From contig NC_092372.1 of the NCBI RefSeq assembly GCF_030028105.1, positions 198,501,898 through 198,565,897 of the forward strand: a stretch of 64,000 bases of DNA, in the 5' to 3' direction. Below are positions 1,481-19,524 of this stretch, in pieces; the stretch's first letter is position 1, and every line of letters begins with the position of its first letter. The translations under genes and the position numbers were made by a program. The stretch comes from Mobula birostris (lineage: Eukaryota). The notes below the pieces were generated by a model. It had not been told where the DNA came from. It searched no databases and was given only the letters and a program-made list of their open reading frames with translations.

Positions 1481-2229
1481 TGCAGAGTACCCCGGTAGCC
1501 ATCCCCTCAACAACAGGCGTACCACTTTGGATATTGTTGGCAGGGGATGACCAAGCAGAGGAAAATCACAGCAGTCGGGTCCCTCGCACTGAGTCAGCCT
1601 CGGTGACTCAGAGGGCAAGGAGTGAGAAGAGGCGAGCTGTGGTGATAGGGCATTTGTTAGATAGAGGAACCGCAAGGAGGTTCTACGGACAAGAACGAGA
1701 TTCCCGGATGGTTTGTTGCCTTGCCAGGTGCCAGGATCTGGGACATCTCTGATCAAGTCCTTCTTATTCTTAAACGGGAGGGTGAACAGCCAGAGACTTT
1801 GGTCTTTGTGAGTACCAATGACATAGGTAAGAAGAGAGACGAGGTTCTGTAGAGTAAGTTAGCTAGGTGCTAAGGTAAATGGTGGGACCTCTAGGGTTGT
1901 GTTCTTAGGATTGCTACCTGTGCCATGCACTAGTGAGGCAATAAGTAGGAGGATTATTCAGTTTAATATATAGCTAATGAGTTGGTGTAGGAGGAAGGGC
2001 TTTAGATTTCTGGATCATCGGGCTCTCTTCCAGGGAAGGTGGGACCTATACAGAAGAGATGGTTTGCTCCTTAACTGGAGGGGGGCTAATAACCTAGCGG
2101 AAAGTGTTGCTAGTACTGCGCGGGGGCGGGGGGGGGGGGGGGAGGTTTAAACTAGAATTTAATGGGGATGGGAACCAGAACATCAGAAGAGTGCTTGTAG
2201 AGACAGGTGTTGTTAAGGCTTCAGACAAA
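1481..2229 (+). mobile_element. CR1 LINE fragment: ORF1 SGNH-esterase region and ORF1/ORF2 junction
   Basis: RRAVVIG..., MVCCL...ARCQD, VFVSTND and DGLLLNWRGAN align with ORF1 of the full-length CR1 at 17961-18928. Ends GGTTTAAACTAG (2144-2155). Confidence 0.85.
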
Positions 2230-14132: not shown

Positions 14133-14921
14133 TATATTGTAGATACATGCTGGTATTTGTGTATGTAATGCCCTGGTTAAGATCTTTTACTGCTATGCTG
14201 TAGGTATTTCAGTTGAGCAGTCTGTTCTGCTTTTAGCATGTTTGGATTTGAGCTAAAGATAAGGGGCTATACGACTTAGGAACATTGTGTCAGCCATTCA
14301 GGATGGTGGGATTGGGAGAAGGTTCTGGAGAACGCTGGGCAGAGATGTTTTTGTGACAGACACTGGTGTGGGTCGAGATCTTTTTGGCAGAAGTTGGGGG
14401 AAGACAGGAAGGAAGATGGCTGAGGATGCCGTCCCTGTTGTACAAAGTGCTTTGTGCAGATGAATGGCCTCAAGGAAAAAGGACCTCTACTCCCATGGGA
14501 GAGCCCACTTGTCTGAGATGGGGTTTGAGCAACATTCGGAAGGTGGTGTGTGCTTTCATACAGAATGTGGGTCCAGTGCGTGAGTTAAAGACAACTTCAA
14601 CATGAGCTCCAATGTATGTGCACATTTGAACTATAATGAGTTTTTAATCTTTTTTCCTACTGTTTGATAAAGCTCAAATTTGTAAATATATTTTATTTAT
14701 AACTGTATGGACCGTATGATCTGTTATTTCTTGCTGACGGCTAAATACACAGGGCCGGTATTTACCCAGTATTCACATAGTTCGGGTTTCGGGTGTCGAG
14801 ACGTCCCAACTTCCAGGTTTTGTTGGGACTCATAGAAACATAGAAAATAGGTGCAGGAGTAGGCCATTCGGCCCTTCGAGCCTGAACTGCCATTCAGTAT
14901 GATCATGGCTGATCATCCAAC

Positions 14922-17900
14922 TCAGAACCCTGTACCAGCCTTCCCTCCATACCCCCTGATCCCTTTAGCAACAAGGGCCATATCTAACTCCCTCTTAAAT
15001 ATAGCCAGTGAACCGGCCTCAACTGTTTCCTGTGGCAGAGAATTCCACAGATTCACCACTCTCTGTGTGAAGAAGTTTTTCCTAATCTCGGTCCTAAAAG
15101 GCTTCCCCTTTATCCTCAAACTGTGACCCCTCGTTCTGGACTTCCCCAACATCGGGAACAATCTTCCTGCATCTAGCCTGTCCAATCCCTTTAGGATTTT
15201 ATACGTTTCAATCAGATCCCCCTTCAATCTTCTAAATTCCAACGAGTATAAGCCTAGTTCATCCAGTCTTTCATCATATGAAAGTCTTGCCATCCCAGAA
15301 ATCAATCTGGTGAACCTTCTTTGTACTCCCTCTATGGCAAGGATGTCTTTCCTCAGATTAGGGGACCAAAACTGCACACAATACTCCAGGTGTGGTCTCA
15401 CCAAGGCCTTGTACAACTGCAGTAGTATCTCCCTGCTCCTGTACTCGAATCCTCTCGCTATAAATGCCAGCATACCATTTGCCTTTTTCACCGCCTGCTG
15501 TACCTGCATGCCCACTTTCAATGACTGGTGTATAATGACACCCAGGTCTCGTTGCACCTACCCTTTTCCTAATCGGCCACCATTCAGATAATAATCTGTT
15601 TTCCTGTTTTTGCCACCAAAGTGGATAACTTCACATTTATCCACATTAAATTGCATCTGCCATGAATTTGCCCACTCACCCAATCTATCCAAGTCACCCT
15701 GCATCCTCTTAACATCCTCCTCACAGCTAACACTGCCGCCCAGCTTTGTGTCATCCGCAAACTTGGAGATGCTGCATTTAATTCCCTCATCCAAGTCATT
15801 AATATATATTGTAAACAACTGGAGTCCCGGCACTGAGCCTTGCGGTACCCCACTAGTCACTGCCTGCCATTCTGAAAAGGTCCTGTTTATTCCCATTCTT
15901 TGCTTCCTGTCTGCCACCCAATTCTCTATCCACATCAATACCTTACCCCCAATACCGTGTGCTTTAAGTTTGCACACTAATCTCCTGTGTGGGACCTTGT
16001 CAAAAGCCTTTTGAAAATCCAAATATACCACATCCACTGGTTCTCCCCTATCCACTCTACTAGTTACATCCTCAAAAAATTCTATGAGATTCGTCAGACA
16101 TGATTTTCCTTTCACAAATCCATGCTGACTTTGTCCGATGATTTCACCGCTTTCCAAATGTGCTGTTATCACATCTTTGATAACTGACTCTAGCAGTTTC
16201 CTCACCACCGATGTTAGGCTAACCGGTCTATAATTCCCCGGTTTCTCTTTCCCTCTTTTTTTAAAAAGTGAGGTTACATTAGCCACCCTCCAATCCGCAG
16301 GAACTAGTCCAGAATCTAAAGAGTTTTGAAAAATTAACACTAATGCATCCACTATTTCTTGGGCTACTTCCTTAAGCACTCTGGGATGCAGACCATCTGG
16401 CCCTGGGGATTTATCTGCCTTTAATCTCTTCAATTTACCTAACACCACTTCCCTACTAACATGTATTTCGCTTAGTTCCTCCATCTCACTGGACCCTCTG
16501 TCCCCTACTATTTCTGGAAGATTATTTATGTCCTCCTTAGTGAAGACAGAACCAAAGTAATTATTCAATTGGTCTGCCATGGCCTTGCTCCCCATAATCA
16601 ATTCACCTGTTTCTGTCTGTAGGGGACCTACATTTGTCTTAACCAATCTTTTTCTTTTCACATATCTATAAAAGCTTTTACAGTCCGTTTTTATGTTCCC
16701 TGCCAGTTTTCTCTCATAATCTTTTTTCCCCTTCCTAATTAAGCCCTTTGTCCTCCTCTGCTGAACTCTGAATTTCTCCCAGTCCTCAGGTGAGCCACTT
16801 TTTCTGGCTAATTTGTATGCTTCTTCTTTGGAATTGATACTATCCCTAATTTCCCTTGTCAGCCACGGGTGCACTACCTTCCTTGATTTATTCTTTTGCC
16901 AAACTGGGATGAACAATTGTTGCGGTTCATCCATGTGATCTTTAAATGCTTGCCATTGCATATCCACCGTCAATCCTTTAAGTGTCATTTGCCAGTCTAC
17001 CTTTGCTAATTCACATCTCATACCTTCAAAGTTACCCTTCTTTAAGTTCAGAACCTTTGTTTCTGAATTAACTATGTCACTCTCCATCTTAATGAAGAAT
17101 TCCACCATATTATGGTCACTCTTACCCAAGGGGCCTCTCACGACAAGATTACTAATTAACCCTTCCTCATTGCTCAAAACCCAGTCTAGAATAGCCTGCT
17201 CTCTAGTCGGTTCCTCGACATGTTGGTTCAAAAAAACCATCCCGCATACATTCCAAGGAATCCTCTTCCTCAGCACCCTTACCAATTTGGTTCACCCAAT
17301 CTACATGTAGATTGAAGTCACCTATTATAACTGCTGTTCCTTTATTGCACACATTTCTAATTTCCTGTTTAATACCATCCCCAACGTCACTACTACTGTT
17401 AGGTGGCCTGTACACAACTCCTACTAGCGTTTTCTGCCCCTTAGTGTTATGCAGCTCTACCCATATCGATTCCACATCCTCCTGGTTTATGTCCTTCCTT
17501 TCTATTGCATTAATCTCCTCTCTAACCAGCAACGCCACCCCACCTCCTTTTCTTTCATGTCTATCCCTCCTGAATATTGAATATCCCTGAATGTTGAGCT
17601 CCCATCCTTGGTCATCCTGGAGCCATGTCTCTGTGATCCCAACTATATCATATTCATTAGTAACAATCTGCACTTTTAATTCATCCACCTTGTTACGAAT
17701 GCTCCTTGCATTGACACACAAAGCCTTCAGGCGCGCTTTTACAACTCTCTTAGCCCTTACACAATTATGTTGAAAAGTGGCCCTTTTTGATGCTTGCCCT
17801 GGATTTGCTGGCCTGCCACTTTTACTTTTCACCTTACTAATTTTTTCTTCTACCCTCATTTTACACCCCTCTGTCGCTCTGCACTGGTTCCCATCCCCCT

Positions 17901-17976
17901 GTTGTGAACTAACCTCCTCTCGCCTAGCCTCTTTAACTTGATTCCCACCCCTCAACCATTCTAGTTTAAAGTCACC
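14922..17976 (-). pseudogene. CR1 ORF2: apurinic endonuclease plus reverse transcriptase, one frameshift and one premature stop
   Basis: Endonuclease motifs NARSI, ITETW, YRPP, GDFN, SDH. RT motifs PGPDG, YRPVSL, YLDFQKAFD, GVPQG, FADD. Extra base in the A7 run at 17230-17236 and an in-frame TAG at 15558-15560. Confidence 0.95.
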
Positions 17977-18928
17977 TCAGTAGCCCTCGCTAATCTCCCT
18001 GCCAGGATATTGGTCCCCCTGGGATTCAAGTGTAACCCGTCCTTTTTGTACAGGTCATGCCTGCGCCAAAAGAGGTCCCAATGATCCAAAAACTTGAATC
18101 CCTGCCCCCTGCTCCAATCCCTCAGCCACGCATTTATCCTCCACCTCATTGCATTCCTACTCTCACCGTCGCGTGGCACAGGCAGTAATCCTGAGATTAC
18201 TACCTTTGCGGTCCTTTTTCTCAACTCCCTTCCTAGCTCCCTATATTCTCCTTTCAGGACCTCTTCCCTTTTCCTACCTATGTCATTGGTACCTATATGT
18301 ACCACGACCTCTGGCTCCTCACCCTCCCACTTCAGGATATCTTTGACATGATCAGAAATATCCCGGACCCTGGCACCAGGGAGGCAAACTACCATCCGGG
18401 TCTCTGGACTGCATCCACAGAATCGCCTATCTGACCCCCTTACTATCGAGTCCCCTATTACAACTGCCCTCCTCTTCCTTTCCCTACCCTTCTGAGCTAC
18501 AGGGCCGGACTCTGTGCCGGAGGCACAGCCACTGTCGCTTCCCCCGGGTAAGCTGTCCCCCCGCCAACAGTACTCAAACAGGAGTACCTATTGTCAAGGC
18601 GCACAGCCACCGGGGTACTCTCTATTACCTGACTCTTCCCCTTCCCCCTCCTAACCCTGACCCACTGGTCTGCCTCCCGTGGCCCCGGTGTGACCACCTG
18701 TCTGTAACTCCTCTCTATCAACTCCTCACTCTCTCTGACCAGACGAAGGTCATCGAGCTGCAGCTCCAGTTCCCTAATGCGGTCCCTTAGGAGCTGCATC
18801 TCGGCGCACCTGGGGCAGATGTGGACGTCCGGGAGGCTTGGAGACTCCAGGGTCTCCCACATCCGACACTGAGAACAGCAAACTGCCCTCACACTCATAC
18901 TGCCCCTCTCCTCAAATAACAACAACAA
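17961..18928 (-). pseudogene. CR1 ORF1: zinc-finger/coiled-coil plus SGNH esterase, one frameshift
   Basis: CSQC...CPRC followed by a leucine zipper (LRDRIRELELQLDDL), then IGDS, HIGTND and DGLHLN esterase motifs. Frameshift in the G-run at ~18557-18565. Confidence 0.9.
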
Positions 18929-19524
18929 AAAAAAATGAATACCAAACCTTCCTAGCCTCGCCCGTTTCCGCCTAAGCCCAGTGAGCCAAAGCCCTTAAGC
19001 CTTCACTCTGCTCCCGGCTCACTCCGCAGCCCGCAAGCTACGCTGCCCTCTGTATGAGGCTCTGTTTCTTTTAAATCTTCTGCACTTCACTGCCCGACAT
19101 CACACGCCTGCGCAGTCCCGCCTCTCTGAACGCCGATGGAAAAAAAAATGAAAAATTCAGAAATGTCTACCTCCGCACTCCCGCTCTGATTCTCAGACTT
19201 CCTTCTTCGACTCAAGTCATGCTGACCCAGGACATACAGAGTTTGAGAAAGGTGGTATTTCTCACTGCTGTGTTGAGTTGCTATTAGCGAGAGTGTAATA
19301 AGCCGTGCTTCTATAGACGCCCGGTAAAAAGGGCGTATTTATGCATGTTATATTCCATATCCATATATGAATCACTCATTTTATTTTTATATGTATTTCT
19401 TTATACTTTATAATTGTTGAATATTTTTCGTTGCATGTCTTGCCGTGACCAACATACTACAGCAAATTCTGAATACGTGTAAATGTATGTATATGGCAGA
19501 TAAAGTTGATCCTTGATCCTTAAT

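Follow-up and report, generated by a model that had tools for sequence, protein, structure and literature searches.

The pro-pol junction of HTLV-1 is reportedly crossed by -1 frameshifting at the heptamer U_UUA_AAC. This heptamer is among the most shift-prone for mammalian ribosomes and is named for IBV (PMC5009743; here and below, PMC numbers refer to excerpts of the papers). For the Dictyostelium elements TRE5-A and TRE3-A, -1 frameshifting is stated to be required for ORF2 (PMC5911963); HeT-A needs a frameshift within gag (PMC5009743), and for Paramecium elements +1 shifting or reinitiation has been suggested (PMC5405496). The initiation of ORF2 is called an open question in PMC3894237, and frameshifting is not among the routes listed in the excerpt. 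The esterase of ZfL2-1 is described without mention of a frameshift in the excerpt of PMC3905857; CR1 is not mentioned in that of PMC5009743, where natural G-quadruplex stimulators are said not to have been known as of 2016; and the excerpts of PMC3708506, PMC13405545, PMC7175516, PMC4255032 and PMC5006619 hold nothing on CR1 frameshifting. No paper describing a CR1 frameshift was found in the literature searched; the 1997 papers on chicken and turtle CR1, which lie outside its coverage, may mention the overlap.

Here we describe the junction of ORF1 and ORF2 in a CR1 element located in a 64,000-nucleotide stretch of Mobula birostris DNA (the window). Among LINEs, CR1 is one of the major clades in sharks, reptiles and birds. 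The junction appears to be a real, strongly conserved recoding signal, i.e., a known mechanism in a clade for which we found no earlier report.

The CR1 element and the junction of its reading frames

The element is full-length and decayed (Table 1). Its assignment as CR1-type rests on an ORF1 that encodes an esterase, an ORF2 with APE endonuclease and reverse transcriptase (RT), and the 3′ hairpin with tandem repeats, rather than on an RT tree. The 5′ limit is placed where 8 of 29 related copies stop matching (19201-19217), and the 3′ end is the TTTCTATG repeat. This end consists of a hairpin followed by short tandem repeats without poly(A), which is a feature of CR1 elements. The esterase domain of ORF1 matches PF13472 (E 2e-16) and ORF2 matches PF03372 (APE endonuclease) and PF00078 (RT) in Pfam; ORF1 is 94% identical to a 311-aa Mobula protein. 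The window copy is dead, a point absent from the sequence-only reading that preceded this analysis, because each ORF has a frame break (near 18560 in ORF1 and near 17236 in ORF2) and ORF2 also carries a stop at 15560-15558.

Table 1. Features of the CR1 copy and its ORF1/ORF2 junction, in window positions
Feature	Position	Strand	Remarks
CR1-type LINE, decayed, full-length, ~4.4 kb	14831..19215	-	5′ limit from related copies, 3′ end from repeat
ORF1: Cys-pair motif, predicted coiled-coil-like stretch, SGNH/GDSL esterase	17961..18898	-	ORFs, Pfam
-1-frame TGA closing ORF2 upstream	17977..17979	-	2 open codons before heptamer here
Slippery heptamer U_UUA_AAC	17964..17970	-	ORF1 register: last base of Thr codon, then Leu, Asn
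ORF1 stop, directly 3′ of heptamer	17961..17963	-	TAG here, TAA in other subfamilies
G-rich motif, conserved, candidate stimulator	17940..17956	-	starts ~7 nt 3′ of heptamer
Second copy of G-rich motif	17888..17900 (region 17905-17888)	-	
In-frame ATG of window copy	17857..17859	-	not conserved (ATG/GTG)
ORF2, -1 frame: 86-codon linker, APE endonuclease, reverse transcriptase	14922..17970	-	ORFs, Pfam
Conserved Asn of APE endonuclease	17712-17710	-	
Reverse transcriptase in ORF2	about 16253-15600	-	
3′ terminal hairpin region and TTTCTATG repeats	14831..14890	-	sequence; hairpin predicted in 21 related copies

The sequence-only reading had claimed that ORF1 ends in the heptamer TTTAAAC with the stop directly behind it, that the heptamer stands in the X_XXY_YYZ register, that ORF2 lies exactly in the -1 frame, closed upstream by a TGA, and that an in-frame Met precedes the endonuclease. 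Each of these points was borne out. The minus strand reads GTG ACT TTA AAC TAG, which gives T_TTA_AAC in the ORF1 frame; the TGA is in place, and the ATG lies 37 codons past the TTT, or ~34 past the stop. In the list of open reading frames, the ORF at 17961-18587 ends in ...ATEVTLN and the ORF at 17203-17976 begins with GDFKLEWLRGG. The heptamer by itself is not rare and means little, there being eight X_XXY_YYZ words in the 4-kb element (about 0.002 per position); it is the fixed position and the nucleotide invariance across subfamilies that exceed chance.

Two further decayed esterase-CR1 copies, belonging to other subfamilies, are present in the window at 2146-2155 (+) and 52313-52304 (-). 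Both have TTTAAAC at the end of ORF1 followed by the G-rich motif, and in the copy at 52313-52304 the ORF1 stop is gone by a point change.

Conservation of the junction among copies, subfamilies and species

In the host genome of 4.0 Gb, a degenerate pattern for the esterase motif DGLHLN gave 22,881 matches, versus 754 for a reversed control. TTTAAACTAR stands exactly 53 nt past the motif in 12,812 of the 22,881 matches and in none of the control. Spellings of Leu-Asn-stop that break the heptamer number 503 with a non-T first base and 302 with a non-A third base of the Leu codon, these genome-wide counts covering the two positions named. Judged by eye from 100 listed examples of each class, they are scattered over many subfamilies; such spellings are at the level of decay expected after insertion.

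Among 126 anchor matches in fetched loci, 94 with an upstream esterase were kept and 32 were dropped; 18 of the 94 copies come from loci chosen for having the heptamer and 76 are unselected. The heptamer is exact and in register in 54 of the unselected copies and lies within a few bases of its place in 62. The 94 copies form 13 subfamilies of at least two copies, plus 20 singletons, and the 11 clusters whose frame is open are 33-91% identical to one another in the endonuclease (median 52%). Conservation of the heptamer and its register across CR1 subfamilies, a check that the sequence-only reading had proposed, was found in 13 of 13 subfamilies, which share ancestry and are not independent trials, and in 10 of 10 when only unselected copies are used.

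The pattern of conservation is one of nucleotides. The longest invariant run in all 13 subfamilies is TTTAAACTA (9 nt, the next being 4 nt), and the same run is invariant in the 10 subfamilies of unselected copies (next, 6 nt). Fourteen codons specify an invariant residue in the 13 subfamilies; 12 of them vary synonymously, including those for the catalytic Asp and His, and the terminal Leu and Asn are the sole ones fixed to one codon. The base before Leu is always T, though the codon that it completes specifies Ser, Gly, Thr, Ala, Cys or Asp, while among variable codons a single third base is kept in 5 of 83. The ORF1 stop itself varies between TAG and TAA. It should be noted that dual coding, in which Leu-Asn is read in frame 0 and Phe-Lys-Leu in frame -1, would likewise hold the bases constant were ORF2 to begin a little upstream in some other way.

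Homologues in other species were compared as proteins. Of 73 homologous proteins, 49 reach the C-terminal esterase motif, and these end in Leu-Asn-stop (42), continue as Phe-Lys-Leu (three) or do neither (four). The set takes in named rays, skates, a sawfish and a shark, a cluster of galliform birds (P0071; 55 members, one of them turkey; 33% identity to ORF1, E 1.6e-21), and proteins at 30-39% identity that are likely of invertebrate source, because the named partial matches beside them are annelid. In this distant group, gene predictions include putative esterase-endonuclease fusions that read YL-KLV and LFKLV at the join. Where Leu-Asn-stop is encoded in frame 0 and Phe-Lys-Leu in frame -1, codon logic forces TTTAAAY. 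The evidence from outside the host genome and its close relatives is at the level of protein, the bird junction being known from protein alone. Contigs from four further organisms show, among the rows listed, no substitution of at least 8% at 17961-17970, and the flanks vary. Searches of metagenome, viral, prokaryote-genome and plasmid sequences for the junction DNA of distant animals gave nothing or unrelated esterases.

Several other records came up alongside these homologues. A metagenome esterase ORF (L101:321-1575), 33% identical, continues into a Pro/Ser-rich repeat tail and is without the Leu-Asn-stop end at the matching place. A protein with the source name Pseudomonas aeruginosa SGNH hydrolase (P0010) is 64% identical to ORF1 and ends in Leu-Asn-stop; it is likely animal DNA in a bacterial record. 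Finally, ray and sawfish gene models that bear names such as TMEM204, RPS24, HAO2 and VSIG10L2 (P0024, P0025, P0053, P0064 and P0070) include CR1 ORF1 sequence, probably as annotation spill-over from LINE copies.

Expression of ORF2 and alternatives to the proposed frameshifting

Two questions bear on how ORF2 is expressed: (i) where its coding sequence begins; and (ii) whether it has a start codon. In nine of the 10 subfamilies of at least three copies, the endonuclease Asn is in the -1 frame, 49-86 codons past the heptamer; the tenth was missed by the Asn pattern, and one of its copies shows the motif in the -1 frame. Over 563 linker codons of the nine subfamilies there are two stops in the -1 frame, compared with 53 and 64 in the others. 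Upstream of the heptamer, the -1 frame is closed within 2-23 codons.

In six of the nine subfamilies, the ORF2 frame is free of ATG up to the endonuclease Asn (the first ATG lies beyond the Asn or is not reached). Linker ATGs are found in the other three at unrelated positions, one of them three codons past the TTT. At the site of the window ATG, GTG prevails genome-wide (2,534 pattern matches versus 944 for ATG, where the GTG pattern is more degenerate by one base and a sister subfamily contributes to the ATG matches), although ATG is present in 24 of the 29 copies most similar to that of the window. Dependence of ORF2 on a conserved downstream AUG, which had been raised in the sequence-only reading as a point against frameshifting, was thus not seen.

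The window subfamily is itself chimeric. ORF1 and the first 56 bases of the linker match L089 (92% and 89%, respectively); beyond that point, the linker and the endonuclease match L160 (93%). The two parts meet in frame ~55 nt past the slippery site, and the -1 frame has been kept. The second copy of the G-rich motif is likely the scar of this in-frame recombination between two subfamilies. ORF2 is thus coding from the junction onward, in most subfamilies with no start codon of its own.

We regard it as highly probable that programmed -1 ribosomal frameshifting at U_UUA_AAC joins ORF1 to the endonuclease and RT in a fusion protein, because this accounts at once for a heptamer that is fixed and in register, for the open linker and for the lack of an AUG. 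The esterase-endonuclease-RT fusion after the manner of gag-pol that had been proposed in the sequence-only reading is supported at this level by the invariant heptamer and register and by the lack of a conserved AUG. Most ribosomes would terminate at UAG or UAA, and their product would be ORF1p. In the few that slip, tRNA-Leu would shift from UUA to UUU and tRNA-Asn from AAC to AAA, and reading would go on with CUA; the transframe product would be ...EVTLN-LEWL... or ...EVTL-KLEWL.... The extent of slippage would set a high ratio of ORF1p to fusion, as in Gag and Gag-Pol. The least certain step is the pause. Its candidate causes are the G-rich motif, which might fold into a two-layer G-quadruplex or bind a protein, and the adjacent stop, if this is decoded slowly.

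A different possibility is that a separate ORF2 protein is made by ribosomes that terminate at the ORF1 stop and reinitiate at a neighbouring non-AUG codon, a route proposed for mammalian L1. The conserved bases would then serve as a signal to restart or would stem from dual coding. AUG-independent initiation of mammalian LINE ORF2 is considered likely in a review (PMC5009743), and SART1 provides a precedent with its UAAUG stop-start (PMC3894237). Reinitiation accounts for the open linker and the lack of an AUG as well as frameshifting does, and makes an RNA stimulator unnecessary. It does not, however, predict an exact X_XXY_YYZ in register or an invariant T under six amino acids. A UAAUG-type junction was looked for as an ATG in the overlap with the ORF1 stop and found in none of the nine subfamilies, and inspection by eye gave no near-cognate start codon common to the subfamilies after the stop. 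We therefore consider reinitiation improbable.

Much the same material bears on a second alternative, in which ORF1p needs its C-terminal Leu-Asn at the protein level and ORF2 starts at downstream AUGs specific to each subfamily. Leu-Asn-stop is kept in distant proteins, and there are the linker ATGs of the window copy and of three subfamilies; yet it is the codons that are fixed and not the residues alone, the linker is stop-free in the -1 frame starting at the heptamer, and the six subfamilies whose first in-frame ATG is past the endonuclease Asn or not reached largely refute a downstream start. It would be surprising if this explanation were correct. The frame might instead be changed in the RNA, either through a splice or through polymerase slippage that inserts a single base at the T3A3 run; the resulting fusion would be identical, and the bases would be conserved in this case too. 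We give this explanation hardly any weight: runs of three are short for polymerase slippage, an RNA lengthened in this way would be reverse transcribed into new genomic copies, yet it is the unshifted form that prevails in the genome (54 of 76 unselected copies), and no recurrent insertion or splice-like joint was seen at the junction among the rows listed for contigs of eight runs.

An implication of programmed frameshifting, if it is the mechanism, is that ORF2 annotations begun at the first Met cut into the endonuclease. The RT would act while joined to the esterase and coiled coil, much as Pol is carried by Gag. Such a fusion fits the Gag-like membrane role that has been speculated for the esterase (PMC3905857).

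Candidate stimulators and comparison with known systems

The G-rich motif downstream of the heptamer has conservation of 0.92-1.0 at 11 of its 17 positions across the 13 subfamilies. Its start falls within the 5-9 nt spacing at which a 3′ stimulatory structure would be expected. It also encodes Gly-x-Gly-Asn in the -1 frame, and there may be a protein-level reason for its conservation. Seven of 13 representatives are predicted to form a two-layer G-quadruplex at the motif, a result that does not beat shuffled sequences. No conserved hairpin was found 3′ of the heptamer in 60-nt pseudoknot-free folds of the 13 representatives (z -1.9 to +1.1); in 100-nt folds, three of the 13 reach z -1.65 or lower with structures that differ from each other. 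A search for a long-range partner of the motif gave best sites that differ among copies, none of them shared, and Rfam returned 0 matches.

Pairing with the 3′ end of the element was also considered, in 21 copies (40 were fetched, 24 near full length were kept, and three of these had no located hairpin). Families 3, 7 and 10 show good pairing, whereas copies of families 2, 13 and 25 pair with their own end no better than with those of other families, and the sole copy of family 1 ranks poorly (top 30%); over the 21 copies, the values are -16.9 kcal/mol for an element's own end versus -15.8 for other families' ends. It was rejected as a general mechanism because the arm that would have to pair is already tied up in the 3′ hairpin. 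The 3′ terminal hairpin and the tandem repeat unit differ among subfamilies, and the arms change while the predicted pairing stays (L172-L211).

These observations can be put together in a broader proposal: that a single U_UUA_AAC-stop frameshift is common to the esterase-CR1 elements from cartilaginous fish to birds, and probably of invertebrates, predating the split of sharks and birds; that it yields an esterase-endonuclease-RT fusion; and that it is driven by the G-rich element, possibly as a G-quadruplex, and the adjacent stop, with no pseudoknot. We put this forward tentatively, as something that may well be so and that falls somewhat short of being probable. If true, a stimulator without a hairpin would be of interest to the recoding field.

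With chicken and turtle CR1 and ZfL2-1, the element shares an esterase ORF1, an ORF2 with APE endonuclease and RT and a 3′ hairpin with short tandem repeats. TRE5-A and TRE3-A of Dictyostelium are APE-type non-LTR elements like CR1, but their clade and their host are different, and the excerpt of PMC5911963 neither describes an esterase ORF1 for them nor gives their slippery sequence. Mammalian L1, SART1 and non-LTR elements with a 2A sequence at ORF2 face the same problem of low-level ORF2 expression. These make a separate ORF2p by initiation or by a skipped peptide bond, whereas in CR1 the ORFs overlap at a slippery site and a fusion is predicted; if this is true, the CR1 answer differs from the worked LINE examples, which use initiation.

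Finally, the heptamer and register at the CR1 junction are those of coronavirus 1a/1b and HTLV-1 pro-pol, where the polymerase ORF likewise lies downstream in the -1 frame. The viral U_UUA_AAC sites have a pseudoknot as stimulator, whereas the CR1 junction has a G-rich motif and no conserved local structure was found there. The CR1 junction differs further in that the stop directly follows the heptamer, and in that its host element is not a virus but a non-LTR retrotransposon with an esterase ORF1.
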